Positions 1-19,030 of a DNA stretch of 64,000 nt are shown here, piece by piece. The notes below the pieces were generated by a model. It was not told the DNA's origin and did not search any database. It saw nothing but the letters and a program-made list of their open reading frames with translations. The DNA lies in assembly GCA_944329355.1 (NCBI GenBank), contig CALVID010000004.1, forward strand, positions 365-64,364, read 5' to 3'. The stretch is from an uncultured Bacilli bacterium. Its GTDB lineage: Bacteria > Bacillota_I > Bacilli_A > RF39 > UBA660. The position numbers were made by a program, and so were the translations under genes. The first letter of the stretch is position 1; each line of letters starts with the position of its first letter.

Positions 1-561
1 TATCCCATAATATTCAGAAACAAATTTAAACCCACCTTGCCAAGCGTTCATTCCGCCTTCTTTATCTGCCCCTATCGCCACAGAAACCTCATCTGGATAA
101 ATAGATCTATCATTATAATATGAAGCAAGCATTGCCATACATGTAGTAGAACAACCATAGGCACGAATATTAGTCCAATGCCAATGATCAACATCCCACA
201 TATCAATATCTCCCCATCTTTCATCTTGCTGTCTATAATGTGGTATAGCTAAACCACCTTCTAATGGTTCATACGCATATTCAACCTGAGATGGATCTTC
301 ATTACAATAATTTGTACTATCTGTTCCAACACCAAATACCACTGCTGGATATGATATTATTTGCATAAATATAATAACTATTAAAGCTACGGTCAAACCA
401 CCTATTAATATAGGTACAACAATAGGAAGTGATAAATGGATTATAATAGTTCTAGCCACTCCAGCTATAACTGATGATAATGTTTTTTCTGTTTGATCTA
501 AACTATTATCTTTATGTATTCTTACCTTTTTAGTTTTAGTAAACAAATTTTTAAATCTCAC
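1..561 (-). CDS. Membrane-anchored papain-like cysteine peptidase (C39/NlpC-P60-like), candidate T4SS cell-wall hydrolase. C-terminus cut by the window edge.
   Basis: Own translation (not in the ORF track). The frame is open from 561 to 1, with a GTG start at 561 preceded by GGAGGTGA. It has an N-terminal TM 'LPIVVPILIGGLTVALIVIIF', then 'HYRQQDERWGD...AYGCSTTCMAMLASYY', a Cys-nucleophile-like motif. It sits directly downstream of VirB4, the PrgK/CwlT position. Confidence 0.5.
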   Translation of the reverse strand, partial: MRFKNLFTKTKKVRIHKDNSLDQTEKTLSSVIAGVARTIIIHLSLPIVVPILIGGLTVALIVIIFMQIISYPAVVFGVGTDSTNYCNEDPSQVEYAYEPLEGGLAIPHYRQQDERWGDIDMWDVDHWHWTNIRAYGCSTTCMAMLASYYNDRSIYPDEVSVAIGADKEGGMNAWQGGFKFVSEYYGI

Positions 562-584
562 ATTATCACCTCCACATCAAGAAA

Positions 585-2369
585 TTATAGACCACCACCT
601 GATCCAAATGAATCTAATTCTTGATCTGTTACAACTACGTTGATTCTCATTCGTTTACTACCACAAACGAATAATGCCTCTCCTTGATTATATCCTTTTA
701 TACTTTCTTTTTCATTATCATTTAAATCTATTAATTTAGATAAATCCTCAACAGCTTGCTTTCTAAGTCCCATAACTAAATAATACGAAGCATTATCAAA
801 AATAGCCTTACCTTGAGTAATAACACTAGGATCACTAAAATCTGTTGGTTGTTGAGTAATGATAATAGTTCCCGTATTATATTTACGAGCACGTCTTTGT
901 ACTTGTGCTAAGAAATCCGCACCTAAAGTATTATTACCAGATAACAAAACGTGAGCCTCATCAACTGTTAATATTGTATTAATATTAGGATCCAAAGTCA
1001 AACTCCATGCATATTTAAGAACGTTAAAGAATAATGCATTTCTAATATTTGTATCAGTATTCATAAGTTCCCTTATATTAAATACTATAAAATTACTTTT
1101 TGGCGATATCGTTGTATTACCATCAAAATAAAATCTAAGTTCACCAATCAAAGGTCTCAATTTTAATTCTAGCTGTTCCAAAATATCTCTTTCTTTACTT
1201 TGTTCAGGCATAGCAGTAATTTTACCACGAACAGTCGCATAAACATCTCTAAATGTTGGATAATCTGTAGAATTAAATTTGGTAAAATCAGTATCAAAAT
1301 CAATACCAAAACGTTTATAAGTTTCTTGAACCATTTCACTAAATACATTAATAACATCTTCAGTAATTGATGGATCATAATACTTCATAAAAGCTTTCAC
1401 TGTTTGTAAAGATCTAGTTAAAACAGCATAACCCATTCCTTGTCTCATTTCATCTTCATCAGCATCCATAATGATTTCTAATGGATTAATCATACCAAAT
1501 TCTCCACCTTTACCCAAATCAATGAAGTCTCCACCATAAAGCCTAGCCATATCTTCAAGTTCACCTTCAGGGTCAATCAAAACCAATTTATAATTATTTC
1601 TAATATGACTCCTTAAAAGTAATTTAGCCGCTGTAGACTTACCACTACCAGAAGTACCTAAAATAATCATATTAGCATTATTTCTATTATGCTCTTTTTG
1701 AATTTGATATAAAAATTGATTAAATAAAACTACACCACCCGAAAAATCTACTCCAAGTAAAGTTGCTAAACCAGGGTCTTTTATACTATCAAATACATAT
1801 GGATACATTGCTGCAAGTGTTGGTGAAGGTATTGGAGTACCAATTCTTTCCTCAATATCTTGTTTTGGAAAAATAGGAAGCATACTCTTTAAAACTTTTT
1901 CTTGCTCAAATCTTAAAGGAATAGCTCTCATATCCATAGCTTCCAAAAAGCTCTTTAATTGTAATTTTTTTGTTGTTAATTCATCCTCAGAATCGGCAGT
2001 AACCATAATATGCAATTGAAAATCATAAATTTTAGCCTGACTTGCGGCCAATTGTTTAATAAACTCTTCTAATGATTCATAATCCTGACGCAATTTTTCT
2101 TGCATAGTTACATCATTTTCTTCTTGATATTTAACTTTCAAATCAGCAATTTCTTTATTGATCATTTTGTTAATAACACCAAATGGTAACGGTATATGTT
2201 TCATAACTAACTTCACACCAGGCATACTTGTTAAATTAGATAAAAAGCCTGGAGTAATAATTTTAGGATAACTAATCGCCGTTAAAATTGAAGAATATTT
2301 ATCACTAGAAATAAAACTATTAGGTTTAAATTGTAAGCCCTTAGGAGCTATTTGTGTTCTTATATCCAT
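585..2369 (-). CDS. VirB4/TrsE/PrgJ-family conjugative T4SS ATPase (central and C-terminal ATPase part)
   Basis: Walker A 'GTSGSGKST', Walker B 'LTVDEAHVLL', and 'RRARKYNTGTIIITQQPTDF', typical of VirB4 ATPases. Preceded by a PrgI/VirB3-like gene. Confidence 0.8.
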   Translation of the reverse strand: MDIRTQIAPKGLQFKPNSFISSDKYSSILTAISYPKIITPGFLSNLTSMPGVKLVMKHIPLPFGVINKMINKEIADLKVKYQEENDVTMQEKLRQDYESLEEFIKQLAASQAKIYDFQLHIMVTADSEDELTTKKLQLKSFLEAMDMRAIPLRFEQEKVLKSMLPIFPKQDIEERIGTPIPSPTLAAMYPYVFDSIKDPGLATLLGVDFSGGVVLFNQFLYQIQKEHNRNNANMIILGTSGSGKSTAAKLLLRSHIRNNYKLVLIDPEGELEDMARLYGGDFIDLGKGGEFGMINPLEIIMDADEDEMRQGMGYAVLTRSLQTVKAFMKYYDPSITEDVINVFSEMVQETYKRFGIDFDTDFTKFNSTDYPTFRDVYATVRGKITAMPEQSKERDILEQLELKLRPLIGELRFYFDGNTTISPKSNFIVFNIRELMNTDTNIRNALFFNVLKYAWSLTLDPNINTILTVDEAHVLLSGNNTLGADFLAQVQRRARKYNTGTIIITQQPTDFSDPSVITQGKAIFDNASYYLVMGLRKQAVEDLSKLIDLNDNEKESIKGYNQGEALFVCGSKRMRINVVVTDQELDSFGSGGGL

Positions 2370-2914
2370 TAACTCATCACCGTCCCAAATGAAGTAGTCA
2401 TACCACCATTTAAGAAATTATCTAAAATAACTCTTAAATCATCATTAGAAGTTTGTGTTGCATTCAAACCCGCATTAGCAAAAGCTTGAATCAAATTTTT
2501 GATCTTCTTTTGAATTTTATCCATATCCTTTTCTTTGAAAAGTAAATAAAATTCCGTATCAACAACATTGTTTACTGTAAACATATTAGCTTTATTAATA
2601 TCGTCCATAATCAATTTTCTTCTTATAGGACTAGATTGCTGATTATAAAGTAACTGTAACCTTGATAAATAAGCTGTAATATCAACTGGTCTATCTGCCA
2701 CAATGATCCAAAATTCATAATCAATCAAATTATAAACATTTCTCAAATTACTTATAATCATATTTTGCATATCAGGTTCTAAGATAAAAATATTTCTAGG
2801 AGAAATCTTCACTCCTGTTACTTTTTGATTATCCTCACAAATAATAACCCCATTTGTAATTGATCTAATAGGTACAAAATCATTTGTATATTTACTTCGA
2901 TTCGTTGTACTCAT
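2369..2914 (-). CDS. VirB4 N-terminal-domain-like protein (separate ORF coupled to the ATPase ORF)
   Basis: Its stop overlaps the ATG of the next ORF (TAATG at 2367-2371). 'FVPIRSITNGVIICEDNQKVTGVKISPRNIFIL' resembles the N-terminus of Gram-positive VirB4 proteins. 181+594 aa adds up to a normal VirB4 length. Confidence 0.5.
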   Translation of the reverse strand: MSTTNRSKYTNDFVPIRSITNGVIICEDNQKVTGVKISPRNIFILEPDMQNMIISNLRNVYNLIDYEFWIIVADRPVDITAYLSRLQLLYNQQSSPIRRKLIMDDINKANMFTVNNVVDTEFYLLFKEKDMDKIQKKIKNLIQAFANAGLNATQTSNDDLRVILDNFLNGGMTTSFGTVMS

Positions 2915-3206
2915 CTTTTACACACCAACCTTTCCATATAAACTTTTGTCTAGTTGTATAAAATCGATAAACCTCTTGAATAACAACTCTAATGTTATGA
3001 TAATTTGGTACTGGTAATACCAAAAATCCACAAATCACAGCCGGCAATAAATCAATTACTGCAGTAAGTAAAGAACTAGGAGCAATTATCAATAGCAATA
3101 ATATAGTTGCACCAACACCAACAGCAAATAATATCAAATCAAATGTTTCAAACACTCCAAAAATCAACATAGATTTTTTTGAATTCGCTGGAATTAAAAA
3201 TTGCAT
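2892..3206 (-). CDS. PrgI/VirB3-like small membrane protein
   Basis: 104 aa with two hydrophobic helices and a basic C-terminal tail. It lies immediately upstream of, and overlaps, the VirB4 ORFs. Confidence 0.5.
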   Translation of the reverse strand: MQFLIPANSKKSMLIFGVFETFDLILFAVGVGATILLLLIIAPSSLLTAVIDLLPAVICGFLVLPVPNYHNIRVVIQEVYRFYTTRQKFIWKGWCVKDEYNESK

Positions 3207-3219
3207 TTAATCACCCTTT

Positions 3220-5283
3220 CTACTTTTTATTTAAAAAATTTTGGCGTAAATCTGAAAGTGTTGCCTTTTCAGCATTAGTAGCATCTTCATATTTATCGCT
3301 TGATTTAATATCAAGTGCTTTATTATGTGCAACATCCTTCACATCTTTCATTGAAGCATATTTATCAACTTTAAGTCCTAATTTGCTTTCTGCTACTTGT
3401 CTTTCTAATTGTTCACGTCTCTTTATCAAATCATAATCTTCTTTTCCTAAAATTTTACCGTTAGAATCAATATAATCTCCAATCAATTTTTCCTCATTTT
3501 TATGATAACTATTCAAATTATTTTTATAAGTGATTTTATCTATAATTCCTTGCTTATAATCATGTTCATTCTTTGCTCTATTAGCTTGTATGATTTTCCA
3601 ATCATCACTTTTTTTAGCAAGTTCACTAGTAGCTCTATCTTTCACTGCAGAAACTGAATTTTCAATTCCTTCATAAATCATTGCCTCTTGATCCATTACC
3701 TCTTTTAATGATTGAGCTCCCATTGCATTTCTAACATAAGATCCAACTCTATATCTAAATTTCGTATTAGCTTTCATTGCCGCATTTCGTGAAACATCAC
3801 CAGCTACATTCAACGAATTAGATACAACATTTTTACCTCCAGAAGAAATTCCTTTAGCTCCACCTTTAACAGCTCCGCTAACAGTACCACCTAAAGTTCT
3901 TGCTAAAGCTCTACCTTTACTTTCTCCAGCATCTAAACTTGTTTTTCCTGCTGCAATTCCAGAAGTTACCGCACCTAAACCAGTTCCAACCGCTAAACCA
4001 GCCATAGATCCAAACCCACTATCTCTAGCAGCTGCAAAAGTTTTAAATGGATTTAAATTCAAATCACCATTACCACTTAACTTAAATATATTGTCAAGTA
4101 TTTTTGGTAATTGTTTTGCAAACATAAATGCCCCTATAATTAAGAATACATAAACCCATATATTATAATCAGGATCAGCCACTTGTGAAGCAATATCTCC
4201 AGCCAACACACGTTCTGCAAATGTTGACACCAATAACATTACTAAAAATATAGTAGCAAGTCTTAAAAACAAAGATACATATGTAGAAAAGCATTCATGC
4301 CCCCATCTACGTAATTTGCTATCCCTCAAACTTTCTTGAGGATCAATATATGATACTATAGCGATTGGTGCAACCATCTGTAAAACACATAATTTGATTG
4401 CACGTGTCGCTACATCTATACAAAAAGATATAAGCAAAAATACGACATAACCCCCTGCTAAAGTAGAAATAAATGGCATATAATTTATAACATACTCATC
4501 ATCAGATCTTGCCGCCAATAATTTGCCCAAATGAGTAAAATTACGATCATCACAAACACCATCACTTGAACATGCCTCACCAGAAATGGCAGAATTAGAA
4601 GATTTATACTTAAAAAAGCTATATAAAGAAACTCCCGCAGCAGTAGCATCATCTGGCAAATTTTCTTGTATTGCATTTAGACAATCTTCAGCCTTAGCTA
4701 CGTCAACTGATCCAAAAACACCACTTGTCCCTTCACAAGCCGCATAGTCTTTACCTGAAGCAGTCACAGTCGGGTTAAGATTATAAAATGCTCCAAATAA
4801 CATAAATTGCAAATCCTTAGCCATTTCATTCACCTTTTCAGCATCAATTCCATCAATCTTGTTATTTTCATCAACAGATGACATATTTGTACCCAAAATT
4901 ATTTGTCCTATAACATTATTACGGACAATAGCATTTTGAAGTGTAGTTGCAACTTCAAAAATTGTTGGAACACTAACTAACAACACTAATGCAACCAAAA
5001 CATTAGTAACCAACTTACCCATACCTTTAGAACTATCCTTAAAATCATCAGGAGACACTAAATATTGTAATAAAGAAAAACTAACTTTAAATAACATAAA
5101 AATTCCAAGTAAAACATAAACATGATTAACTAAAGCGTGTAAAGGATCCGAACTATTATCACCATATAAATTTAACTCAGATAAATATATAAATAATTTA
5201 TAAATTGTTGGAATCAAGCCATAAACGATATCATCAATAAAAAACATTAATGATCTAAAAAGATCCCATAAAACATCCTCCAT
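3220..5283 (-). CDS. VirB6/TrbL/PrgH-like polytopic channel protein
   Basis: 687 aa with multiple TM helices, a Gly/Ala/Ser-rich tract 'GFGSMAGLAVGTGLGAVTSGIAAG', and a long charged C-terminal tail. Its synteny upstream of VirB3/VirB4 matches VirB6-type genes. Confidence 0.55.
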   Translation of the reverse strand: MEDVLWDLFRSLMFFIDDIVYGLIPTIYKLFIYLSELNLYGDNSSDPLHALVNHVYVLLGIFMLFKVSFSLLQYLVSPDDFKDSSKGMGKLVTNVLVALVLLVSVPTIFEVATTLQNAIVRNNVIGQIILGTNMSSVDENNKIDGIDAEKVNEMAKDLQFMLFGAFYNLNPTVTASGKDYAACEGTSGVFGSVDVAKAEDCLNAIQENLPDDATAAGVSLYSFFKYKSSNSAISGEACSSDGVCDDRNFTHLGKLLAARSDDEYVINYMPFISTLAGGYVVFLLISFCIDVATRAIKLCVLQMVAPIAIVSYIDPQESLRDSKLRRWGHECFSTYVSLFLRLATIFLVMLLVSTFAERVLAGDIASQVADPDYNIWVYVFLIIGAFMFAKQLPKILDNIFKLSGNGDLNLNPFKTFAAARDSGFGSMAGLAVGTGLGAVTSGIAAGKTSLDAGESKGRALARTLGGTVSGAVKGGAKGISSGGKNVVSNSLNVAGDVSRNAAMKANTKFRYRVGSYVRNAMGAQSLKEVMDQEAMIYEGIENSVSAVKDRATSELAKKSDDWKIIQANRAKNEHDYKQGIIDKITYKNNLNSYHKNEEKLIGDYIDSNGKILGKEDYDLIKRREQLERQVAESKLGLKVDKYASMKDVKDVAHNKALDIKSSDKYEDATNAEKATLSDLRQNFLNKK

Positions 5284-5296
5284 AATCTCCTCCTCC

Positions 5297-6163
5297 TTAT
5301 TTATCTATATCACAAAAAATATTACCGTCAGTACCAACTGATATCTCACCAGCCGCATTTTCATTAATGACATCAATGACGAATGTTAAAATAGTTGGTA
5401 ATAATAACAATATAATTACTACTATAATTCTCGTAAGTAAATGTTGAAAAGCTGCTTTTAATTTTTCTTCATCTGATCCAACAATTGCTTTTACAAAACT
5501 TATTGCTGTCATAACAACTAATAAAACTATACTAGCAACAGAAATTATCCAAAAAGCTATTACAAGCATATTACTAACATTTCCACTAATTGCTTGACAT
5601 GGATCTCCTATTGAGACATCACCACTAAGACCATTCTCTTCTGCCCATCTTTTTATGGCTGCCGTATCTACACTAGAATCAGTAAAAGCATCTGGATTTG
5701 CCGTTGCTTGCTCAATACATTTTATAAACTCTTCAGAATTTTCTTCATATGCATTATAACAATATTTTTGAGCAGCAGATATATCTTGAGCTTGTTCAGT
5801 ATTATCTGCAGCTTCATCATTCGTTGCACCAGTAGCATCGTCTGCATTAGATGTCGCATCAGAATCAAAATCCTCTGTTGGATCTTCCCAATTTTCTTTA
5901 TCTTCATTAGCTTGTTGTTGACATTTTGCCTTACACTGAGCGCAAGCTTGACCATTTGGAGCCGTTTTACAAGCATCACTATTATTACAATTATTAATAC
6001 ACGAATTACTACTCGAACTACTTGAAGAACTACCAGAACCAGAAGAACTTCCTAAACAATCTGGCCAATCTGGACTAGTTTGATTACAAATAGCATTAAC
6101 TCCACTTATATTAACAAATAATATCCCTACAATTAACAAAATAGATATAAAATATTTTTTCAT
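5297..6163 (-). CDS. Secreted Ser/Cys-rich acidic protein with a C-terminal VirB2/TrbC-like two-TM module
   Basis: Signal peptide 'MKKYFISILLIVGILFVNISGVNA', a poly-Ser/Gly run, then Cys-rich and acidic segments. The C-terminal 'FVKAIVGSDEEKLKAAFQHLLTRIIVVIILLLLP' is paralogous to ORFs 6271-6678 and 6694-7062. Confidence 0.5.
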   Translation of the reverse strand: MKKYFISILLIVGILFVNISGVNAICNQTSPDWPDCLGSSSGSGSSSSSSSSNSCINNCNNSDACKTAPNGQACAQCKAKCQQQANEDKENWEDPTEDFDSDATSNADDATGATNDEAADNTEQAQDISAAQKYCYNAYEENSEEFIKCIEQATANPDAFTDSSVDTAAIKRWAEENGLSGDVSIGDPCQAISGNVSNMLVIAFWIISVASIVLLVVMTAISFVKAIVGSDEEKLKAAFQHLLTRIIVVIILLLLPTILTFVIDVINENAAGEISVGTDGNIFCDIDK

Positions 6164-6193
6164 AAAATCCCTTACCTTAATATATACATAACC

Positions 6194-6235
6194 ATTATAG
6201 CAAAAATAATTTTAAAGATAAATAAAATTATAAAA
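6194..6235 (-). promoter_or_regulatory. Putative extended -10 promoter for the 5297-6163 gene and downstream T4SS genes
   Basis: Minus strand reads TGCTATAAT (extended -10) about 30 nt upstream of the RBS AAGGTAAGGGA and the ATG at 6163. The -35 is weak. Confidence 0.4.
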
Positions 6236-6242
6236 ATAAAAA

Positions 6243-6270
6243 CAAAAAAAGTTATTTTACAATAACCTTT
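6243..6270 (-). terminator. Rho-independent terminator/attenuator after the VirB2-like gene pair
   Basis: Minus strand reads AAAGGTTATT-GTAA-AATAACTTTT followed by a T-run, immediately after the stop at 6271. Confidence 0.55.
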
Positions 6271-6678
6271 TTATTCAGTAGTATCTTCTGTTTCATTATT
6301 TGTATCAACACCATTAATAAATTTCTTGCTACAACTCCAAATATCACTAACAGTTGTACCATCAGGATTAGTTTGATCTTCCACTCCAGATACTAAATTA
6401 ACAGCTAATTGAACAATGAATATAATCAAAAATACAATCAAAGCAGAAATCAAACGCGAAACAAAAGCCTTTTGATATTTCTTTATATCTTCTTCTTTCT
6501 TAGCTACAACAGACTTAGTAAAATCAAGCATACCCCAAATAATTAACAATATTGGGACTACTATTTTTATACCAGTAATAATTGTTGAAACTACATTAAA
6601 TAATGCATTAGGTACTAAAATACCTTCACATAAAGTCGAATCAGAAACATCTAAAATATATAATAAATTCATATTCAA
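6271..6678 (-). CDS. VirB2/TrbC-like pilin-type small membrane protein (paralog 2)
   Basis: 135 aa with two TM helices separated by the charged loop 'KSVVAKKEEDIKKYQKAFVSRLI'. It shares 'IVVPILLIIWGM' with ORF 6694-7062. A Cys is conserved near each end. Confidence 0.5.
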   Translation of the reverse strand: MNMNLLYILDVSDSTLCEGILVPNALFNVVSTIITGIKIVVPILLIIWGMLDFTKSVVAKKEEDIKKYQKAFVSRLISALIVFLIIFIVQLAVNLVSGVEDQTNPDGTTVSDIWSCSKKFINGVDTNNETEDTTE

Positions 6679-6693
6679 TTCCTACTTTCTCAT

Positions 6694-7062
6694 TTATGAT
6701 TCATTTCCAGAAATTAGATCTTGTGCACACTCCCATACAGTTTGTACATCAGTTCCAGAACCATCATCAGTAGTAACACTAGCTGCCAAATTAATTACAA
6801 GTTGAACAATAGTTACTACTAAAAATACAACTACAGCAGCAATTAATCTTTTTAAAAAAGTTCTTTGACCTTGTTTAATTTTATCTTCGTCTTGACCAAT
6901 AATAGCTTTAGCAAAGTCAATCATACCCCAAATAATTAAAAGTATTGGAACAACAATTTGAATTGCCACTATAATTAAATGTATTGTTCTTCCAATTGCT
7001 GTAGGAATACCATTCGATCCTATAAGACCTGCACAAAAATTTAAAGTATTAAATAAATTCAT
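6694..7062 (-). CDS. VirB2/TrbC-like pilin-type small membrane protein (paralog 1)
   Basis: 122 aa with 'IVVPILLIIWGMIDFAKAIIGQDEDKIKQGQRTFLKRLIAAVVVFLVVTIVQLV', a two-TM hairpin topology like TrbC/VirB2. It has a strong private promoter and RBS. Confidence 0.5.
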   Translation of the reverse strand: MNLFNTLNFCAGLIGSNGIPTAIGRTIHLIIVAIQIVVPILLIIWGMIDFAKAIIGQDEDKIKQGQRTFLKRLIAAVVVFLVVTIVQLVINLAASVTTDDGSGTDVQTVWECAQDLISGNES

Positions 7063-7090
7063 AAATTTACCTCCTATAATCTACATAATA

Positions 7091-7119
7091 AATATACCGT
7101 TTATTGTCTTGTTTGTCAA
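7091..7119 (-). promoter_or_regulatory. Near-consensus sigma-A type promoter in front of the VirB2-like genes
   Basis: Minus strand reads TTGACA, a 17-nt spacer, then TATATT. It is followed by the RBS AGGAGG and the ATG at 7062. Confidence 0.55.
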
Positions 7120-7157
7120 CATAATATATACAAAACATTTACAAATAACCACAAACA

Positions 7158-8174: not shown

Positions 8175-8188
8175 TTTATTTCGCCTCC

Positions 8189-9171: not shown

Positions 9172-9195
9172 TTTAAATCACCACCTTAATATCCA

Positions 9196-9219
9196 AGAAA
9201 AACTTGCTTTAAAGCAAGC
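9196..9219 (-). terminator. Hairpin terminator/attenuator directly after the 72-aa pilin candidate
   Basis: Perfect palindrome CTTGCTTTAAAGCAAG (9203-9218), followed on the minus strand by TTTTTC. Confidence 0.5.
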
Positions 9220-9224
9220 AAATA

Positions 9225-9443
9225 TTATTCACCCTCAGCATTACTTACACATGTATCGTAAGTACTTGATTCATAATCAGAACAACTGCCACCTTTCCAT
9301 ACACCTCCAGCATCAGTACAACAAGCACGTTTTGCTGTATTACTCATCAAACTAGTAATAAGTGGTGTAACAACAGCAACAATAACACCGATTAAAATGA
9401 TAGCTACAACTGTTAAATTAGCTTCTCCAGCTGCTTCTTTCAT
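9225..9443 (-). CDS. Small pilin candidate (Flp-size, non-canonical leader, Cys-rich C-terminus)
   Basis: 72 aa: 'MKEAAGEANLTVVAIILIGVIVAVVTPLI', a single hydrophobic helix, then 5 Cys in the C-terminal 35 aa. It has its own promoter and terminator and sits between the TadC-like and TadE-like genes. Confidence 0.45.
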   Translation of the reverse strand: MKEAAGEANLTVVAIILIGVIVAVVTPLITSLMSNTAKRACCTDAGGVWKGGSCSDYESSTYDTCVSNAEGE

Positions 9444-9467
9444 ATATTATCACCTACCCTCCTATTT

Positions 9468-11203: not shown

Positions 11204-11217
11204 AGTATCCTCCTCCT

Positions 11218-12498
11218 TTATTCAAATAAATTTTCTGTTTTAACATCTGAATTAACCGGTGTAGACACCGTCTGTTCAAATACATTAGGTACATTTTCTT
11301 GAGTTTGCTTATCAGTTGATTCTAAATTAGAAGTATCTTGAACAAAAGAATTAACTGCCGGTTTTACATCATTAGTCGTTTCTGAAGTACTAACCTCTTC
11401 ACTATTAGATTTTAAAGACTCAGCTGCAACATAAGTATCACCAGCCATATTTTGTAATTCTTTTGGTAAAAATACACCTTGAACTTCCAAATAATCGATT
11501 AAATAAGGACTAGGATTATTCCTAATAACCTTACCATCAGCACCTTTTCTATAAATAACATTATGTCTAGCTTCATTTGTATCACTAGTAACATAAAACT
11601 CTGTAACTTCAGCAATTTCTCTCCTAAAATTCTTAGTTGCCTTATCTTGATAACCCCTGACATATATTCCAATTTGAATATATCTACATATAGAACTCAT
11701 AAACTGATCCAAATCTTGGTTAGTTTCAAGCAAACTATACATACGGTTTGGAATAGAAGAAGCCTTATCTGCATGAATAGTAGATAAAATATAATGCCCA
11801 GATGAAATTGAGTTACGTACTGCAAGTACAGCTTCAGCACTACGAACCTCAGAAAGTAAAATCCATTTTGGATTTTGTCTCATACAAGCTTCCAGAATAT
11901 CTGTATAAGTAGCAATATTATTTGTTTTAAGAGCAACTATATCGCGGTGTGGAAAAATCTTGTCTAAATGTAATTCTAATGTATCCTCTATTGTAATTAC
12001 CTTTTCATTATCAGCAATCTTAGAAGCCAAATATTTAACTAACTCTGTCTTACCAGAACCAGTTTCTCCACAAACAATCATGTTGCAATGTCCGAGAACA
12101 CATTGTTCTAAAAAATCAATAATATCTAATTCAACATATTTATCAGCTACTATCTTTTCTTTTTGCAAACGAATTTTTGCTGGTGTCTTACGGACAACAC
12201 AAGCAATACCATTTTGCGAAATAGAATCATGGATAAAAGCTAAACGTAACTCTGCACTCTCAGCATCCAAGAAAGGATGTGCCATATTAAATGTCTTTCC
12301 CATAACATTTGAACATTGAAACGCTAGCTTTTCCATAAATGCATTATTAATAGCCTGATTTTCAATTCTAAATATTCCTTTAGATAATGTTTTTAAATGA
12401 ATTTGACCACCATTATCATAAGAAATATCGGTTATATCATCATCTTCTAAATATGGTTTTAAAGGACCAAAATCTATTTGGTCAAACATATTATTCAT
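11218..12498 (-). CDS. TadA/CpaF (VirB11-superfamily, T2SSE) secretion ATPase
   Basis: Walker A 'CGETGSGKTE', 'VITIEDTLELHL', 'MRQNPKWILLSEVRSAEA' and 'STIHADKA' match the CpaF/VirB11 conserved boxes. It also has a roughly 90-aa Ser/Thr/acidic C-terminal tail. Confidence 0.85.
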   Translation of the reverse strand: MNNMFDQIDFGPLKPYLEDDDITDISYDNGGQIHLKTLSKGIFRIENQAINNAFMEKLAFQCSNVMGKTFNMAHPFLDAESAELRLAFIHDSISQNGIACVVRKTPAKIRLQKEKIVADKYVELDIIDFLEQCVLGHCNMIVCGETGSGKTELVKYLASKIADNEKVITIEDTLELHLDKIFPHRDIVALKTNNIATYTDILEACMRQNPKWILLSEVRSAEAVLAVRNSISSGHYILSTIHADKASSIPNRMYSLLETNQDLDQFMSSICRYIQIGIYVRGYQDKATKNFRREIAEVTEFYVTSDTNEARHNVIYRKGADGKVIRNNPSPYLIDYLEVQGVFLPKELQNMAGDTYVAAESLKSNSEEVSTSETTNDVKPAVNSFVQDTSNLESTDKQTQENVPNVFEQTVSTPVNSDVKTENLFE

Positions 12499-12500
12499 TA

Positions 12501-13556
12501 TTATTGCCCCACATTAGTTGAATTAGTCATTGGAATATCAATTGTAAGTGAATGTGCAGTACCATCATCTTCTTGAACAGTAGCCGTAAGAGTTCCATTA
12601 CCTGTATAAATAAGTTCTTGCGTTGTTTTAGTTACTGTTCTAGATCTCTCATCATCTTTAACATATGTACAAACATACTCTTCACCACAGCCTTCTGGGA
12701 AAGTAATTGTAACAGTATTTGGATTTCCACCAGTTTCAGTAACCTTTGGCATTAATTCATCATTCTCAGCTGTAATTTCTGGTTCAGGAATATTAACAGA
12801 ATGTGCATCAATATAATCAACTAATTGTTGTGTAGAAACAGCTGTCGCACCTTCAGTATCAACTTCACCACCATGAGGTACTGGATATAATTCAACACCT
12901 AATACATCCATATAAGAAGCTTTTTTCAAAAGCGTATATAAATTACTCTTTAAACCAAAGATTAACATTGCAGGAGTTCTTTCTTCACTAGTATTTTCAA
13001 ATACAGCTCTACCAGAAGAATCCTTAACAGCAAGTACTTCGATATTTTCAATTAACTTACCGATCATAATTTTTTCATCAGTACCATCTCCAACCTTCAT
13101 ATAAATATCGATCATATTACCAGGAAAAATTGAATTACCATAAGTACTTTCCATATCTACTGGGAAATTATAAACAACTTCACCAGATTTAACTTTAGCA
13201 AACGCTGCATCAGGTAGCTCATCACCTGAAATTACTGTATCAGTATAAAACATACTACCTTCTGGAATAACCGAATTGACATTCGAATACATTCCAACAA
13301 TTTGTGATCTAGATCTAATCACATTATCACTAAGTGAAACATTAGGCATATCAACAAGTTGTACCATATCATCAGTGATCTCTGTTCTAGGTTGAATAGT
13401 TTGTGTAGCAACAGGAACTTGTACAGGTTCTACTGCATTGTTGATTTGTGTACTATAACCAACATATAACAAGATTAGAATTATTACAACCCCAATAATT
13501 GTTACCACATTTTTGTTTCTAAAAAGTTTCTTGGCTGACGCCATAAAATTATCCAT
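12501..13556 (-). CDS. CpaB/RcpC-like pilus assembly protein
   Basis: N-terminal TM, a SAF-like segment 'VQVPVATQTIQPRTEITDDMV...IPEGSMFYTDTVI', then 'IFPGNMIDIYMKV...IENIEVLAVKD', like the CpaB core. Confidence 0.65.
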   Translation of the reverse strand: MDNFMASAKKLFRNKNVVTIIGVVIILILLYVGYSTQINNAVEPVQVPVATQTIQPRTEITDDMVQLVDMPNVSLSDNVIRSRSQIVGMYSNVNSVIPEGSMFYTDTVISGDELPDAAFAKVKSGEVVYNFPVDMESTYGNSIFPGNMIDIYMKVGDGTDEKIMIGKLIENIEVLAVKDSSGRAVFENTSEERTPAMLIFGLKSNLYTLLKKASYMDVLGVELYPVPHGGEVDTEGATAVSTQQLVDYIDAHSVNIPEPEITAENDELMPKVTETGGNPNTVTITFPEGCGEEYVCTYVKDDERSRTVTKTTQELIYTGNGTLTATVQEDDGTAHSLTIDIPMTNSTNVGQ

Positions 13557-13583
13557 ATTCTCATCCTCTCTTTTCTTTTATTT

Positions 13584-13985
13584 TTAATAAGGTACTTCCA
13601 AAATAGCATCAATTCTGTTTTGCAAATCAAATGTTATTTCAGTGCTACCTCCAACACCTACCACACCGCTTTGTACACTTAAGCTTACCTTTGGTGGTTT
13701 CTCATTAATATCATAGAATTTAATTGTATATTGTCTAGTTCTACTAGCACTTTCAGCATATCTTCTAATAAAATTCTCTACAAATTTCTCTCTGAAAATC
13801 CTTATTTCTCCTGTAGATCTATAAGAAGAATAATCAAACGCATCCCACATAGCTGCCTCGGTAACTTCTTTTAATAATTGTGAGTTATGTTCATCAGTAT
13901 TAGTTAAATTCTGAAACAAAACAATAAAGAATAATGAAGCAACACCTAAAAATATAACAAATATTCCCCAAAATGATTCTTTCAT
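13584..13985 (-). CDS. Small N-terminally anchored protein (possible minor pseudopilin)
   Basis: 133 aa. 'MKESFWGIFVIFLGVASLFFIVLF' shares the M-K/R-E + TM start with the three pilin-like ORFs. Confidence 0.3.
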   Translation of the reverse strand: MKESFWGIFVIFLGVASLFFIVLFQNLTNTDEHNSQLLKEVTEAAMWDAFDYSSYRSTGEIRIFREKFVENFIRRYAESASRTRQYTIKFYDINEKPPKVSLSVQSGVVGVGGSTEITFDLQNRIDAILEVPY

Positions 13986-13995
13986 GTTTTACCTC

Positions 13996-16746
13996 CTAAA
14001 CATCTTTATCACAAGTATAAAAATTGGTTCCGTTCACTTTAGAACATACTCCTGATGTTTGTACCTCACTTCTTAAAAATTCACTAATACAAGCTCTACC
14101 ATTATCTTCACACTTTAAAGTCCAGTCATCATATTTATTCTTATCATTATAACTCCTAATTGATGCGATTGTGTTAGAGTCTAAAGTTACTTCATACAAT
14201 ATATGGTTCTCACGATAAACTTTACCACCGTTAACCGTTCCACCACGTTCTCTAGTAATAAAATGTTTTACCGTATTATTATCAAAACTACAATCAATTT
14301 TTTGCGTTTTAATATTATAATTACACCAATTTGAACCAGTATCCCTTTGTTCAGCCCCTTGTCCAGGGAAAGGATTTTCTAAATCTATTGTTCTATAAAT
14401 GACATCTTTACCGCCATATCCCGGACATGTTCCATCTGGCATTGGAGCACATGAACCATCCGGACAACAACCATAAGGACATTCATCCTCAGGGCAATAA
14501 GGTTCTGGTGGACAAATAGCATCATATTCTTCTTTAGTTATTTCTTTACCTTCAAAATCATAATATTTACCATTTTCGATTCGACAATCTTCAGGACAAA
14601 CTTCATAATATTCTTCTTTACTAACTTCACTACCATCACCTAAATAATATTTACCATCCTCAATTCGGCAAATACCATCATTAGGATCTCTAGTAACCGG
14701 ACAGATATAGCCAGAATTACTATTTTCTAAATCATTTTGAACTATACAGTCATTATTATTTCCTATTTTATTTTTTGTTCTATTTGCAACACAACTATAT
14801 AATCCAGAATGATATCCACCACTACCATTAGAATATAGTTTTGCACATGCACTTTGAGTAATTTCACTATATTCCTCATCATCCAAAGAACCTTTAACAA
14901 TTGAATTATTTGAAACGGCACCAGCCTTTATAGCTTTTTGATATATATTTTCATCAATTGGATTATTTGGATCAGTAAAATAATTATTGTCCATTTTATA
15001 AGCTTCTTTTATTTTACTATTAGGATCAGTTGGCAATTCATAAGATAATTGTATATCAGCAATTTTATCTTGACCAGTTGTTTCATTTTCAAATGAAATA
15101 GGTAAATTAGCAATACCAACATTTCTATATTCATTTTTTAATTTTTCAGCAGAAATTCCATTAGGATCATAAATTGATAATCCATCTTGTAATCTAATAT
15201 ATCTATAAACATCATCTTTTAATGTATAAGATACTGTTTGGGTCATTGTAAGCATATTATTTGAAACATTAGAACTATATGTATTATCAGCAAATTCATC
15301 CTTTACTAATTCAATAGATTTTTTACTATACTTACTTTCCTCTTTATTATACTCTGTATATTTTAATTTTACAGTTCCAGCATTATCTTTAAATGTAGAA
15401 CGACTATTTCTTTCAAAATTATTTAAAGCATTGACATTGTTAGTACTACTTTTACATTGTCTAGTTCTAGTAACTGTAATAGGTTTAAAATTAGGTGGTG
15501 TTACTGTCAAAGTAGCTAATTCCTTGTTTGTTGCATTAACTGTAAAATAACGGCCTGTATTAACCCTAATATGATTAGTTAAATCAGGGAAATTTACATA
15601 ATACTCTTCTCTACAGAAAACACCATTTCCTTTGTCATAATACTTTCTTGCATTATCCACATTTGCATCAGGACTAGCTAAAATAGCCTCCCAATTAGTA
15701 GTATCTTGAATAACATAAGCTTTATTACTAAAACCTGTTGCTAGACAATTGACACATGCTGCATCTATAGAATAATCATAATCCTTAAAAGGATCAGTTG
15801 AAAACCACAAAATATTATAACCGGAACCATTATTAGGATCAGCGAATTGAGGTGCCAAATCTCTAACAATCAACCCTTTCCAAGCATTCGCAAAATAATT
15901 TTTCTCCCAAATAGCATTTCTTACACCCATATCATCTCTAGTAGTAAACAAATCATTGCCTGCTTTTGTTACATTAGGAGAAATATACGCTGTTCTATCT
16001 CCAACTAAATATTTCTTTATAGCATTATTACTAGCCGCATCTTTTCTAGTCATAGCCTTCCACCAATCAGAAGCTCCCACACAGCCATTTTGAAATATTT
16101 GAATTTTTTGAATCATAATTCTATACCCAAATGATTCATATCTTCCAGGATTTTCATCTTGCTTTCTTTGTAAATCCTTTTTATCTACCCCAAAGCCTTG
16201 ACTACTAGTTAAATAACTCTCTATTAAACGTTTATTTTCCGGAATATCATCATCTAACCCAGGACCAAATATACTATCTATTGTTTCGCCATTTAACAAT
16301 CTGTTTGATAAAGTTGCTAAAGGACCATCCGTTACATATTTAACACCATATTTTGCTGTATTTGTTTTCTCCACTGCATTTGTATATTCTTTTACCGTCG
16401 CAATTGTAGTATCTACACCAGCTTGACCCCATATTATATCATTATAAGCTCTACTAGGTATTTGTACAATTACCGTTTTTAAAATTTCACGTCCACCATT
16501 TTGCTCTTTATAAACCAAATCATATCTAAAAGCTGCTGCACTGGCGATACCTTTATAACCATCACCATCTTCAAAACCAACTTGCCAATAAGTATCTGGT
16601 AAACATGATCCAGGTGCACCTGATGCACCACCAGTATTTCCACTATGATCTCCTGTTCCTCCATCCTTAGCCGCAAAAATTATAGTAGGGGCTATAGTCA
16701 TAACAAGAATAAAAACCATTAACACCGCAACAATTTTCTTTTTCAT
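13996..16746 (-). CDS. Large secreted Cys-rich protein (candidate adhesin/fibre-associated)
   Basis: 916 aa with signal peptide 'MKKKIVAVLMVFILVMTIAPTIIFA'. It has the C-terminal tandem modules 'CRIEDGKYYLGDGSEVSKEEYYEVCPED' and 'CRIENGKYYDFEGKEITKEEYDAICPPE', then 'CPEDECPYGCCPDGSC'. Confidence 0.6.
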   Translation of the reverse strand: MKKKIVAVLMVFILVMTIAPTIIFAAKDGGTGDHSGNTGGASGAPGSCLPDTYWQVGFEDGDGYKGIASAAAFRYDLVYKEQNGGREILKTVIVQIPSRAYNDIIWGQAGVDTTIATVKEYTNAVEKTNTAKYGVKYVTDGPLATLSNRLLNGETIDSIFGPGLDDDIPENKRLIESYLTSSQGFGVDKKDLQRKQDENPGRYESFGYRIMIQKIQIFQNGCVGASDWWKAMTRKDAASNNAIKKYLVGDRTAYISPNVTKAGNDLFTTRDDMGVRNAIWEKNYFANAWKGLIVRDLAPQFADPNNGSGYNILWFSTDPFKDYDYSIDAACVNCLATGFSNKAYVIQDTTNWEAILASPDANVDNARKYYDKGNGVFCREEYYVNFPDLTNHIRVNTGRYFTVNATNKELATLTVTPPNFKPITVTRTRQCKSSTNNVNALNNFERNSRSTFKDNAGTVKLKYTEYNKEESKYSKKSIELVKDEFADNTYSSNVSNNMLTMTQTVSYTLKDDVYRYIRLQDGLSIYDPNGISAEKLKNEYRNVGIANLPISFENETTGQDKIADIQLSYELPTDPNSKIKEAYKMDNNYFTDPNNPIDENIYQKAIKAGAVSNNSIVKGSLDDEEYSEITQSACAKLYSNGSGGYHSGLYSCVANRTKNKIGNNNDCIVQNDLENSNSGYICPVTRDPNDGICRIEDGKYYLGDGSEVSKEEYYEVCPEDCRIENGKYYDFEGKEITKEEYDAICPPEPYCPEDECPYGCCPDGSCAPMPDGTCPGYGGKDVIYRTIDLENPFPGQGAEQRDTGSNWCNYNIKTQKIDCSFDNNTVKHFITRERGGTVNGGKVYRENHILYEVTLDSNTIASIRSYNDKNKYDDWTLKCEDNGRACISEFLRSEVQTSGVCSKVNGTNFYTCDKDV

Positions 16747-16759
16747 AAATCCACCTCTA

Positions 16760-17386
16760 TCATCTTCGTCTCTTTTTCAAAAGACAATATATAATATATA
16801 TCAATAAAACAAACCCAATAAATATGAACATAAATATATTTTTATGTAGTTCCTCTACTATTATTTGTAAAAAATCTTTTTTCGTACTTGCTTTTTCTTG
16901 AATCTTCTTATTTAATTTTTGTTCATAATTATTTAAAGCTGTATCAAATTGATCATCATCAAAAGTAAAGTTGCCCCATTTTTGACAATACTCAAAATTA
17001 GGATATCGCTGACATTCTTCTCTACTAGCATATATATTTAAAGTTGGCAAAGTAATTGTTTTTGTTAATAACATTTCACCTCGACAATTTGCATCATTAG
17101 AATATATATTAAAATTAACTGTTCCACTATAATAATGAAAAGTTTTCTCACCCGCACCATAATATGTCCTTCCATAATCGTCAACTACATATAAATCATC
17201 TGTCAAATTAGTCATAAAAATTGTAAAATCTTTATCATTATACAAATATGAAAGTTGAACATTACTGGCAAGTCTAGACAACTCTGCCTGTCTTTGATAA
17301 TCACAATCAGCAAATATCATCAAAGGAGAAACAATCATACACAAAAAAGCAAAAACAATATATTTGATTTTTTTATTTAGCCTCAT
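16760..17386 (-). CDS. Secreted, C-terminally anchored Cys-containing protein
   Basis: The start was moved to the ATG at 17386 (RBS AGGAGG 8 nt upstream). It has signal peptide 'MRLNKKIKYIVFAFLCMIVSPLMIFA' and a C-terminal TM followed by 'KKRRR'. Confidence 0.5.
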   Translation of the reverse strand: MRLNKKIKYIVFAFLCMIVSPLMIFADCDYQRQAELSRLASNVQLSYLYNDKDFTIFMTNLTDDLYVVDDYGRTYYGAGEKTFHYYSGTVNFNIYSNDANCRGEMLLTKTITLPTLNIYASREECQRYPNFEYCQKWGNFTFDDDQFDTALNNYEQKLNKKIQEKASTKKDFLQIIVEELHKNIFMFIFIGFVLLIYIIYCLLKKRRR

Positions 17387-17422
17387 ATGCCTATCCTCCT
17401 TTTTATTATAACACATTTAAAA

Positions 17423-19030
17423 TTATTTCAAAATATATTTATATACATTATTACGTATTTTTAAAGAAAAATTAATTTCTGTAGCATTTTTGACATCACG
17501 AGGTACTTCTACATAATAACTAGACGAACTTTGATTAACTCGTGGTTTTATATTTTGTGTATTTATTTTTTGACTGGTCCAAACACCATTTAACTTATAA
17601 TTAATAGTTGCAAAAGAATTTAAAAAATCAGCAAAAGTTGTTACAGATGAAATATTCACATTCTTATCTAAATTAAAATCAGCATTTATTTTCATCAATG
17701 TTTTAAAATAAGTGCCAGTAGCAGTTGGTGTTAAATATTCAATAGAATCAACATATTTATCTGTACCATAAGCAAATTTATAATTTATTTTAAAAGTATC
17801 ATTTATCTCAAAACTATTTATTGTTAAACTAGAATTGCCTAAAATACTATCTTCTAAACTAAGCGTTTCTTTCAAATTAACCGCTTTAACATCCTTGCTT
17901 CCACTTAAATTAATCGGATCTAAATTAACCATAATGTCTTTTGCTCCTATTTCACCTTTAACATAGCTGACATCATCATTAAATTTTAACACCATTTTTT
18001 TATTAGCCTCTTCTTTAGGGACAACGAAAGCTAAAATATAATTTTGAAATTCAACTCCAAGTTCCTGATTAGTATATGGAGTTCCTAGATCATAAAGTTC
18101 TTTTGCATAATCATTATTTTGTCCATAGGAATTATTACCTATTCTAAGTGTTGCTAAACCTGTATTTAAAGTTTTATTTACTCCACCTTGTTTTTTAATA
18201 TCCATTTTAACAACCACTACCATATTATCGGTAAGTTTATTGCCAAGTGGATCTTCTTGTGTTAAATAAGTGTCTTTAATATTCATAACCACACCACTCG
18301 CACTAAAAGATTCACCTTGATCATAATAAGCTGTATAAATACTAATGTTAAAATAAATATTAAAACCTATCAAAATCAACAAAATAACCATGGCTGTATT
18401 AATTACTAATTTATGTTCACCATAAATATATTTTAGTTGTCTAAAGTTATATCTTATTTGCCTATTAACTTTATTTTTATCAAACTCTAAAGCAACTTCA
18501 ATTTCTTCACTGTCTTTTTCATCAATATCTAATTTCTGTAAATCTGTTCCAAAATCAAATTGCTTAATATCAAAGCCAGTTGCTCTAACGATATATAAAA
18601 CAAAACTAACAGCTTGTAAAATAAGAGCTATCATAAAGAAATCACGTAATGCACTAGCAAATCTCATATCCAAAAGAGAAGCACTAATATCTCTCAACAC
18701 AGGTTGTGTAATCCCATACAAAACAATAACCGCTACATAAACAATTAAACTATATATATATAATTTTTTTGGCTTATTTTTATAAATCATTACTGATAAC
18801 AAAACAATTATTAAAATAATGACTCCCAAAACCATTAAAAAACTATAAATGTTTAAAAGTGAACGAGGAGCCATATCATTAAGAGCTGTACTATAATCAT
18901 CAACATAAACCCTAAAAAAATTGTAAAGTGTAAAAGAACGATACAATAAAAATGCTACAAAAACCGCAATAATAGTATGTAATAATTTAAAGTATTTTAT
19001 AAAAAATGCATACGGTTTTCTTAATATCAT
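17423..19030 (-). CDS. Polytopic membrane protein with a large extracytoplasmic C-terminal domain (first gene of the cluster)
   Basis: 535 aa. About five TM helices in the first 160 aa, one more near residue 210, then a beta-rich domain. No recognisable catalytic motif. Confidence 0.5.
   Translation of the reverse strand: MILRKPYAFFIKYFKLLHTIIAVFVAFLLYRSFTLYNFFRVYVDDYSTALNDMAPRSLLNIYSFLMVLGVIILIIVLLSVMIYKNKPKKLYIYSLIVYVAVIVLYGITQPVLRDISASLLDMRFASALRDFFMIALILQAVSFVLYIVRATGFDIKQFDFGTDLQKLDIDEKDSEEIEVALEFDKNKVNRQIRYNFRQLKYIYGEHKLVINTAMVILLILIGFNIYFNISIYTAYYDQGESFSASGVVMNIKDTYLTQEDPLGNKLTDNMVVVVKMDIKKQGGVNKTLNTGLATLRIGNNSYGQNNDYAKELYDLGTPYTNQELGVEFQNYILAFVVPKEEANKKMVLKFNDDVSYVKGEIGAKDIMVNLDPINLSGSKDVKAVNLKETLSLEDSILGNSSLTINSFEINDTFKINYKFAYGTDKYVDSIEYLTPTATGTYFKTLMKINADFNLDKNVNISSVTTFADFLNSFATINYKLNGVWTSQKINTQNIKPRVNQSSSSYYVEVPRDVKNATEINFSLKIRNNVYKYILK

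Follow-up and report, generated by a model that had tools for sequence, protein, structure and literature searches.

A 64,000-nucleotide stretch of DNA from an uncultured Bacilli bacterium of the order RF39 (contig CALVID010000004.1, positions 365 to 64,364; the whole stretch is called the window below) carries at its left end a co-directional gene cluster in which a type IV secretion system (T4SS) adjoins a module built around a CpaF/FlaI-type secretion ATPase. To judge from its sequence relatives, the cluster probably descends from a Gram-positive conjugation apparatus of the mating-pair formation (MPF) FATA kind, closest to the pLS20 plasmid family and to the integrative and conjugative elements (ICEs) of mycoplasmas; the placement in the MPF-FATA class rests on the best NCBIfam matches (NF045975, NF045971). 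Because of its fixed chromosomal place and its lack of DNA-mobilising genes, it resembles a conjugation system that the cell has adopted for its own purposes. The reading favoured here, with a probability of roughly 55%, is that of a domesticated conjugation-derived apparatus whose ATPase module and channel cooperate in contact-dependent transfer. The novelty lies in the setting, a fixed RF39 chromosomal locus devoid of mobility genes, and not in the join of the two modules.

Gene content and homologies

Nineteen complete minus-strand open reading frames (ORFs) span positions 585-19030, and a twentieth, the hydrolase gene, leaves the left edge of the window; intergenic distances range from -23 to +107 nucleotides. 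The initial annotation of this DNA had counted about 22 contiguous ORFs, so that the co-directional cluster stands and the number falls to 20. It had also described the cluster as running off the left edge, where about 9 kb more indeed follow. An ENA contig (L001), 99.89% identical to window positions 235-12369 (12.1 kb) and encoding exactly the same VirB4 protein, continues leftward with a hydrolase of 421 amino acids (aa), three unannotated proteins (690, 264 and 230 aa), a VirD4 coupling protein (T4SS-DNA_transf, 197 bits) some 7.5 kb past the window edge, and then rhodanese and rmuC genes. VirD4 lies downstream in 33 of 35 related loci. The window itself holds no VirD4, relaxase, integrase or prepilin peptidase, as had been noted; of the genes expected further left, VirD4 was found in this close relative, with no match to a relaxase or an integrase. 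Window positions 1-234 and positions 9415-9648 of L001 (reverse complement) are unalignable inside the hydrolase gene, after about residue 87.

The assignments of the T4SS half (VirB4, VirB6, two VirB2-like pilins and the hydrolase) are well supported by family matches, and its closest matches are the mycoplasma-ICE VirB4 family and the pLS20 family. VirB4, 72-93% identical across species, has NF045975 as its best NCBIfam match (349 bits, cut-off 590) in addition to P-loop_TraG and AAA_10. Since the 104-, 181- and 594-aa ORFs cover successive positions of this profile (3-84 with E 0.077, 99-276 with 57 bits, and 295-891, respectively), VirB3-VirB4 appears to be split into three genes. The VirB3-like label earlier given to the 104-aa protein agrees with its weak profile match and with a 90.5% hhalign hit to the protein upstream of VirB4 on a Mycoplasmatota plasmid, zrk4. 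VirB6 passes the TrbL_4 cut-off, as anticipated, and aligns with pLS20_p028 (gene 49; hhalign 95.7%). The two VirB2-like paralogues are 42% identical to each other; the window copies stay below the threshold of PF18895 (Gram-positive T4SS_pilin), which is matched by 23 of 29 orthologues of both (best E 4.5e-6), so the earlier VirB2 label is carried by the family rather than by the window copies. Residues 196-266 of the 288-aa protein weakly match the pilin-like Mbov_0395 and the MMCAP2_0566 families. The hydrolase call is borne out by Peptidase_C39_2, Amidase_5 and NlpC/P60 matches of the L001 orthologue. Its catalytic C39-like part is a different allele from that of L001, with a 67%-identical version in locus L012, and the cluster varies most in this gene and the two that follow it.

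In the other half, which had been named a Tad/Flp pilus machine, the ATPase, CpaB-like and DUF5411 assignments are firm, while the half as a whole is only partly canonical. The TadA/CpaF reading of the ATPase holds: among PDB sequences it is closest to FlaI (71.6 bits, residues 6-302) and CpaF (70.2 bits, residues 6-257). A plain VirB11 was considered and rejected, since VirB11 (58 bits) covers the ATPase core only and FlaI and CpaF cover both domains; NCBIfam equivalog cut-offs were not reached. On plasmids, its nearest relatives are genes labelled 'CpaF/VirB11 family' on pZB18 and on pLS20-like plasmids (31% identity, E ~1e-39; E ~1e-38 for pLS20 gene 37), and it is closer to Gram-positive plasmid 'VirB11' proteins (157 bits) than to Rhizobium CpaF-type ATPases (~70 bits). 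The CpaB-like protein, likewise recognised earlier, narrowly passes the RcpC cut-off and has a SAF domain; it matches TIGR03177 at E 1e-10, under the family cut-off. The DUF5411 protein aligns with pLS20 gene 36 (hhalign 72.5%, E 3e-5), and DUF5411 co-occurs with CpaF and PilC-like genes in Clostridia (PMC9523054).

The remaining members of this half are more remote. The 338-aa protein at the junction with the T4SS genes, read earlier as a TadZ-like ParA protein, has no Pfam, NCBIfam or PDB sequence match, and a PDB profile search with its family was likewise empty; its AlphaFold2 model (mean predicted local distance difference test score, pLDDT, 71.7) matches MinD, ParA, FlhG and FleN in Foldseek (E 1e-5 to 1e-4), with the solved TadZ entry absent from the top 50 matches. 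The predicted fold thus suggests the TadZ/CpaE domain layout. Two T2SSF platform proteins had also been proposed, and neither the 264-aa nor the 301-aa membrane protein matches T2SSF directly in Pfam or NCBIfam. Among 1.84 billion representatives scanned, the 264-aa protein has 524 homologues; T2SSF (PF00482) is matched by 3 of 40 distant ones, and the family profile aligns with a Rhizobium TadC-type (T2SSF) protein at 51% hhalign probability. The same family aligns with pLS20 gene 39 (96.5%, E 8e-10) and with a 235-aa protein of pZB18 (88%). It also aligns with the 301-aa protein (62.6%, E 7e-5), which marks the two as remote paralogues. The 301-aa family itself gave no hhalign signal against pLS20 gene 38, the 276-aa protein of pZB18 or the T2SSF proteins of zrk4 and Rhizobium, even with a larger alignment.

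Three small proteins (72, 162 and 165 aa) share a short polar leader (M-K/R-E...G) followed by a hydrophobic helix. The 72-aa protein, previously taken for a Flp pilin, has no match to Flp (PF04964) or any other pilin family in Pfam and NCBIfam; its nearly invariant N-terminus MKEAAGEANLTVV lacks a G/XXXXEY motif, and hhalign to Rhizobium Flp was negative. The TadE identity proposed for the 162- and 165-aa paralogues fares no better: they lack Pfam and NCBIfam matches, TadE (PF07811) included, as well as the G/XXXXEY motif, and are negative in hhalign against Rhizobium TadE and TadG. The DUF5411 protein does not match TadE either, and no comparison of the small proteins with an N-terminal transmembrane (TM) segment to TadE, TadG, Flp or small plasmid ORFs gave an hhalign signal above 27%. 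The 72-aa gene has a promoter-like site of its own and, directly past its end, a terminator-like hairpin with a T-run, whose stem pairing is preserved by compensatory changes among relatives with at least 70% junction-protein identity; these features suggest a separately tuned, highly expressed subunit. The fast-evolving 916-aa secreted protein is 28-67% identical between species, with no family match and nothing usable in the PDB sequence search.

Chromosomal location and linkage of the two halves

Cluster relatives were found in at least 124 species representatives in a genome scan, among them Candidatus Coprosoma intestinipullorum and complete chromosomes of 1.3-1.5 Mb, and in at least 389 metagenome stretches. 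The cluster is flanked on either side by housekeeping genes. Beyond the tRNA-Leu gene follow scpB, scpA, recA, pgsA, alaS, frr, pflB, the hrcA-grpE-dnaK-dnaJ operon, ligA and pcrA, so the stretch is chromosomal; with recA, scpAB, alaS, dnaK, ligA and pcrA in the same co-oriented stretch, a plasmid or phage fragment is ruled out. At the far end, rhodanese and/or RmuC follow VirD4 in 27 of 35 loci, in species whose VirB4 is just 70-79% identical, and the cluster proteins diverge in step with each other and with the flanking genes. G+C is about 30% and flat along the whole window. No protein from the 535-aa membrane protein to VirD4 matches a relaxase family in Pfam or NCBIfam, and the 690- and 264-aa proteins of L001 have no PDB sequence relative and no relaxase. 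Family searches of the cluster proteins gave no integrase, recombinase or transposase, DDE enzymes included; no tRNA-derived repeat (att) for an integration at tRNA-Leu lies at the far end of the cluster, and no near-identical DNA was found in plasmid and phage collections. The conserved flank, the flat G+C and the absence of a recombinase and of a tRNA repeat argue for a vertically inherited, fixed chromosomal locus. The alternative that two modules are merely co-mobilised on one island, raised in the initial annotation, does not agree with such an RF39 locus without relaxase, integrase or att repeat.

Adjacency of the two halves is frequent and not obligatory. Among species representatives, T4SS genes lie directly downstream of the junction protein in 42 of the 51 loci with enough flanking sequence, and the ATPase module lies upstream of it in 59 of 64; on metagenome contigs, the junction protein precedes VirB4 in 28 of 41 loci. 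The junction is thus often, though not always, conserved, and the arrangement is kept down to about 50% junction-protein identity. Identities to the window of the 301-aa protein and of VirB4 correlate with r = 0.95 over 54 loci, and both halves therefore seem to share one history. In the 96-nucleotide junction, the promoter-like motif TTGACA-17-TATATT recurs in 39 of 47 related loci despite divergent spacers, so the cluster probably comprises at least two transcription units. Split arrangements take several forms. In L014, L075 and L049, the ATPase module and VirB2-like genes are followed directly by prfB, yitT, ftsE, ftsX and yabG; in L017, the same block comes directly after the junction protein, without VirB2-like genes. 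L058-type loci have just the 72-aa and TadZ-like genes between yfhO and leuS, and L102-type loci have the T4SS half without an ATPase module upstream. The VirB2-like genes do not keep to one side: some split loci have them beside the ATPase half, others beside the T4SS half. The features are collected in Table 1.

Table 1. Features of the cluster and of its right-hand surroundings (window positions)
Feature	Position	Strand	Basis or remark
Cell-wall hydrolase, N-terminal 187 aa	1..561	(-)	Runs off left edge; translation
VirB4-type ATPase, C-terminal ATPase part, 594 aa	585..2369	(-)	P-loop_TraG and AAA_10 matches
VirB4 N-terminal-domain protein, 181 aa	2369..2914	(-)	NF045975; PF26593 TraC-like, weak
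VirB3-like two-TM protein, 104 aa	2892..3206	(-)	NF045975, weak
VirB6-like polytopic membrane protein, 687 aa	3220..5283	(-)	TrbL_4 31 bits, cut-off 27; variable C-terminal extension
Secreted Ser/Cys-rich protein, 288 aa	5297..6163	(-)	C-terminal VirB2-like membrane hairpin; weak family matches
VirB2-like T4SS pilin candidate, paralogue 2, 135 aa	6271..6678	(-)	PF18895 18.5 bits, sub-threshold
VirB2-like T4SS pilin candidate, paralogue 1, 122 aa	6694..7062	(-)	PF18895 20.1 bits, sub-threshold
Promoter-like site TTGACA-17-TATATT	7091..7119	(-)	In 96-nucleotide junction
TadZ/CpaE-like protein (junction protein), 338 aa	7158..8174	(-)	AlphaFold2 fold: N-terminal alpha/beta plus MinD/ParA-fold domain
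N-terminally anchored protein, 162 aa	8189..8677	(-)	Minor-pilin candidate, unproven; 36% identical to 165-aa protein
N-terminally anchored protein, 165 aa	8674..9171	(-)	Minor-pilin candidate, unproven; paralogue of 162-aa protein
Terminator-like hairpin and T-run	9202..9219	(-)	Directly past 72-aa gene
72-aa protein	9225..9443	(-)	Major-pilin candidate; nearly invariant N-terminus
Extended -10 promoter-like site	9471-9499		72-aa gene's own
Membrane protein, 264 aa	9503..10297	(-)	Remote T2SSF-like platform candidate; homologue of pLS20 gene 39
Membrane protein, 301 aa	10298..11203	(-)	Platform candidate; distant paralogue of 264-aa protein
CpaF/FlaI-type secretion ATPase, 426 aa	11218..12498	(-)	PF00437 (T2SSE), 95 bits
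CpaB/RcpC-like protein, 351 aa	12501..13556	(-)	SAF and RcpC domains; RcpC 29.1 bits, cut-off 28.8
DUF5411 protein, 133 aa	13584..13985	(-)	N-terminal TM; PF17424 184 bits; counterpart of pLS20 gene 36
Large secreted Cys-rich protein, 916 aa	13996..16746	(-)	Fast-evolving, adhesin candidate; signal-peptide-like N-terminus
Secreted protein, 218 aa	16760..17416	(-)	C-terminal membrane anchor
Polytopic membrane protein, 535 aa	17423..19030	(-)	Large extracellular domain; first gene of cluster
UDG-superfamily gene, 661-aa AIPR (abortive-infection-type) gene, unannotated 279-aa gene	19096-22564		Between cluster and tRNA-Leu
tRNA-Leu(CAA)	23023-23111	(-)	4 kb right of cluster; separates core genes from the variable 279-aa, AIPR and UDG-family genes

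Known relatives, proposed mechanism and alternatives

The join of the two modules is not unheard-of: the same block occurs in genes 36-39 of pLS20, in pZB18, on the Mycoplasmatota plasmid and in Listeria LGI-1. In pLS20, gene 37 is described as a 'putative VirB11' (PMC8557374) and annotated as tadA in RefSeq; a 126-aa protein with an N-terminal TM segment precedes it, membrane proteins of 268 and 243 aa follow, and the operon continues with small TM proteins, VirD4, VirB6, a VirB3-like protein, VirB4, VirB8 and VirB1 (PMC8557374). Genes 36-54 thus resemble the RF39 cluster in order: the DUF5411 counterpart (36), the ATPase (37), two membrane proteins of ~250-300 aa (38, 39), small N-terminal-TM proteins, a small two-TM protein, VirB6 (49), a VirB3-like protein, VirB4 (52) and a hydrolase, with homology shown for genes 36, 37, 39 and 49 at the values given above. 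pLS20 differs in being a plasmid with a MobP2 relaxase, regulation genes, an adhesin and a mid-operon VirD4, and it has no annotated CpaB-like or TadZ-like protein. The RF39 cluster is chromosomal and relaxase-less, with a split VirB4 and additional CpaB-like, TadZ-like and VirB2-like genes; composite plasmid and island systems as a group are also credited with VirB2-like pilins, whereas the authors of the pLS20 work report no VirB2 homologue. Enterococcus pZB18 has its 'CpaF/VirB11 family' gene inside a conjugation operon. The 98-kb zrk4 plasmid (L085, CP074574.1), typed as non-mobilizable, carries a co-directional composite at 11094-33041 that runs in the opposite order to the RF39 cluster: VirB6-like, VirB3-like and VirB4 genes, then a SAF-domain gene, a 613-aa AAA ATPase, CpaF, T2SSF, small pilin-sized genes and a 1650-aa protein. 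For Listeria LGI-1, an annotation from 2010 lists virB4, virD4, virB11/cpaF and tad genes (PMC10300472). As the same block resides on pLS20-type plasmids, a CpaF-type module joined to a Gram-positive T4SS is no new fusion; the partnership is old, widespread and hardly discussed.

Mycoplasma ICEs (ICEA/ICEB; Mbov_0395-0397) share with the RF39 cluster the best VirB4 family and the absence of a canonical relaxase, and weak RF39 matches extend to the ICE VirB6-like TM protein and the pilin-like Mbov_0395 family. All scores lie under the family cut-offs, so the cluster is not a member of this group. It also lacks a DDE recombinase and has a cell-wall hydrolase, which the ICEs lack (PMC12857230), and the ATPase module is not described for them. 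The closest biological analogue is, by comparison of traits, the relaxase-less chromosomal T4SS of Patescibacteria (Saccharibacteria and relatives), which is likewise MPF-FATA-derived, broadly and vertically conserved, equipped with VirB2-like pilin genes (in tandem there) and housed in genome-reduced hosts (PMC12102498, PMC12857230). In one species this T4SS is essential for epibiotic growth, and the lifestyle depends on a type IV pilus system as well (PMC12102498, PMC12857230). Patescibacteria differ in phylum and in their PilB/PilC-type pilus genes, which are not reported in the T4SS locus; in most RF39 genomes, the CpaF-type module is physically joined to the T4SS.

Tad/Flp loci (Caulobacter cpa, Aggregatibacter tad, Rhizobium plasmid L167/L168) resemble the motor half in their CpaF-clade ATPase, SAF/RcpC CpaB-like protein, MinD/ParA-fold TadZ-like protein, two paralogous membrane proteins after the ATPase and small pilin-sized genes. 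Unlike canonical examples, the RF39 module has no Flp or TadE match, no G/XXXXEY motif and no A24 peptidase nearby, and its T2SSF similarity is remote. Cooperation between a T4SS and a type IV filament has precedents. R64 (IncI) and Pseudomonas PAPI-1 combine, on one element, a T4SS (or a VirB4/VirD4 core) with a type-IV-filament machine, which promotes liquid mating in R64 and is essential for transfer in PAPI-1 (PMC12857230); they differ in their Gram-negative hosts, their type IVb pili with PilQ/PilR/PilS-type parts, and their mobility with relaxases. The archaeal Ups/Ced pair is a further case (PMC12102498, PMC12857230).

On the favoured reading, the apparatus would have lost relaxase, integrase and mobility in the RF39 lineage. 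Its channel part would consist of the VirB3-like protein, the split VirB4, VirB6, the VirB2-like pilins, the cell-wall hydrolase and VirD4. The motor part would comprise the CpaF/FlaI-type ATPase, the two platform-like membrane proteins, the CpaB-like, TadZ-like and DUF5411 proteins, and also the three small N-terminally anchored pilin candidates and the fast-evolving surface proteins. We infer that the ATPase module builds a short fibre or surface structure, which would carry the variable surface proteins at its tip or as decoration and make contact with another cell; the hydrolase would open the wall, and VirD4, VirB4 and VirB6 would then move a substrate between cells. Possible substrates are DNA moved with no dedicated relaxase, as when mycoplasmas transfer chromosomal DNA, and proteins or other molecules, as proposed for Patescibacteria.

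Several observations weigh against this reading. In 9 of 51 loci of species representatives and in 13 of 41 on metagenome contigs the two halves do not adjoin, and these separated loci, together with the conserved junction promoter, imply that physical linkage is not required. The T2SSF identity of the 264- and 301-aa proteins is weak, and for the former the PDB fold search with its AlphaFold2 model (pLDDT 74) was negative and the PDB profile search with its family empty. Fibre assembly is unproven because the candidates lack Flp/TadE signatures and the window has no prepilin peptidase: Pfam found no TadV/A24 enzyme among the cluster proteins or, elsewhere in the window, among ORFs 90 aa or longer. 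As window and L001 part inside the hydrolase gene, the left extension is the DNA of a closely related strain and not of the window's own contig, and its 690-, 264- and 230-aa proteins could hide a novel relaxase. The composite apparatus proposed in the initial annotation therefore survives as two co-directional, co-diverging halves side by side; it is not an obligatory unit, and their cooperation is conjectural.

The same separated loci would suit two independent neighbours, a Tad-like adhesion or uptake pilus and a separate T4SS whose adjacency is a historical accident under weak selection. Loci such as L014, L075 and L049, where the ATPase module runs straight into prfB, yitT, ftsEX and yabG, agree with this, as do the junction's own conserved promoter and the stand-alone DUF5411/CpaF operons reported in Clostridia (PMC9523054). 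The recurrence of the same ATPase block within the conjugation operons of pLS20, pZB18 and the zrk4 plasmid, the persistence of adjacency to ~50% junction-protein identity, the strong co-divergence and the VirB2-like genes that side with either half all speak for a closer relationship, and we regard independent neighbours as the less probable account, if one to be taken seriously. A DNA-import (competence) machine, in which DNA or cells would be caught by the filament and DNA taken in through the VirB4/VirB6 channel, like Helicobacter ComB or archaeal Ups and Ced, appears unlikely. Tad pili do support transformation in Micrococcus luteus, the host genome is small (~1.3-1.5 Mb), importing systems also lack a relaxase, and VirB4 weakly matches archaeal CedD (NCBIfam, E 5.6e-11). 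The cluster, however, contains no DNA-binding or ComEA/ComEC-type protein, and the conserved VirD4 sits poorly with DNA-uptake systems, which are grouped among those without a VirD4-like coupling protein; moreover, the T4SS of Southlakia is essential independently of comEC (PMC12857230).

A self-transferring ICE that is still active or was so until recently, with an unrecognised relaxase and recombinase, is harder still to accept, and we give it very little weight. VirD4, VirB4, VirB6 and a hydrolase are the core of conjugative elements, several cluster proteins are unannotated, variable defence-type genes (AIPR) lie between the nearby tRNA-Leu and the cluster, and a recognisable relaxase is also missing in mycoplasma ICEs (PMC12857230) and pXO16 (PMC9673590). 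An element of this kind is nevertheless difficult to square with a rhodanese/rmuC flank shared by diverged species, divergence in step with the flanking genes, even G+C, the lack of integrase or DDE transposase matches and of a tRNA-derived direct repeat, and the absence of near-identical DNA from plasmid and phage collections.

Going beyond the domesticated apparatus, we put forward tentatively, and with less confidence than the favoured reading itself, that RF39 depends on a two-filament (VirB2-type and CpaF-driven) machine for attachment and exchange, and that, by homology, the 'virB11 plus unknowns' of pLS20-type plasmids is a pilus-assembly module. The material exchanged would then be either chromosomal DNA, moved independently of a relaxase, or nutrients and effectors if RF39 lives as an epibiont.

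Surroundings, host and significance

Nearly all genes of the window lie on the minus strand. The UDG-superfamily, AIPR and 279-aa genes may form a small defence islet. Further right, alaS (30097-31845) encodes an enzyme of only 582 aa with catalytic and SAD domains; the long C-terminal part is missing, in keeping with a reduced genome. Genes for an aldehyde dehydrogenase, a FIST-domain protein and an iron alcohol dehydrogenase are enclosed by two ATPase genes of the AAA_14/DUF4143 type (34249-35451 and 39457-40809), and at 44563-46135 an ORF6N-domain gene and an AbiEi-like antitoxin-type gene separate dnaJ from the pyruvate formate-lyase genes. At 59963-62301, five minus-strand ORFs in a row (151-168 aa) have no Pfam match; the one pair compared is weakly paralogous (23% identity, E 5e-9). 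Gene orientation flips from minus to plus at ~59-64 kb, GC skew goes from about -0.4 to about 0 over the last 2 kb, and no dnaA was seen.

RF39, which some records list as Tenericutes, is an uncultured group frequent in the guts of humans and animals; we know of no cultured strain or genetics. The junction protein has 1554 homologues, the named ones being from 'Firmicutes bacterium CAG:822' and 'Bacilli bacterium' metagenome-assembled genomes. Candidatus Coprosoma corresponds to the GTDB genus CAG-822 in this order (PMC8035907), and the relatives place the host in RF39, family CAG-822. A literature search on RF39 with T4SS, pili or conjugation gave nothing specific, and none of the papers retrieved reports the system from this order.

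Reviews hold that Gram-positive conjugation systems appear pilus-less and that, among monoderms, only Patescibacteria have a T4SS that is linked to growth and possibly forms a pilus (PMC11730352, PMC12857230); the pLS20 papers take gene 37 as VirB11 and call Gram-positive systems apparently pilus-less (PMC8557374, PMC11730352). The RF39 cluster bears on both statements. The 'VirB11' block of pLS20 is joined in its RF39 relative by CpaB-like, TadZ-like and VirB2-like genes, which offers a testable hypothesis on liquid mating for pLS20- and pZB18-type plasmids, and pLS20 is genetically tractable. If true, some Gram-positive conjugation systems would not be pilus-less after all. RF39 is also a second, unrelated genome-reduced lineage that keeps a relaxase-less T4SS at a fixed site, in well over a hundred species. 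Such a system hints at a contact-dependent lifestyle or at chromosomal exchange, and could guide attempts at cultivation.

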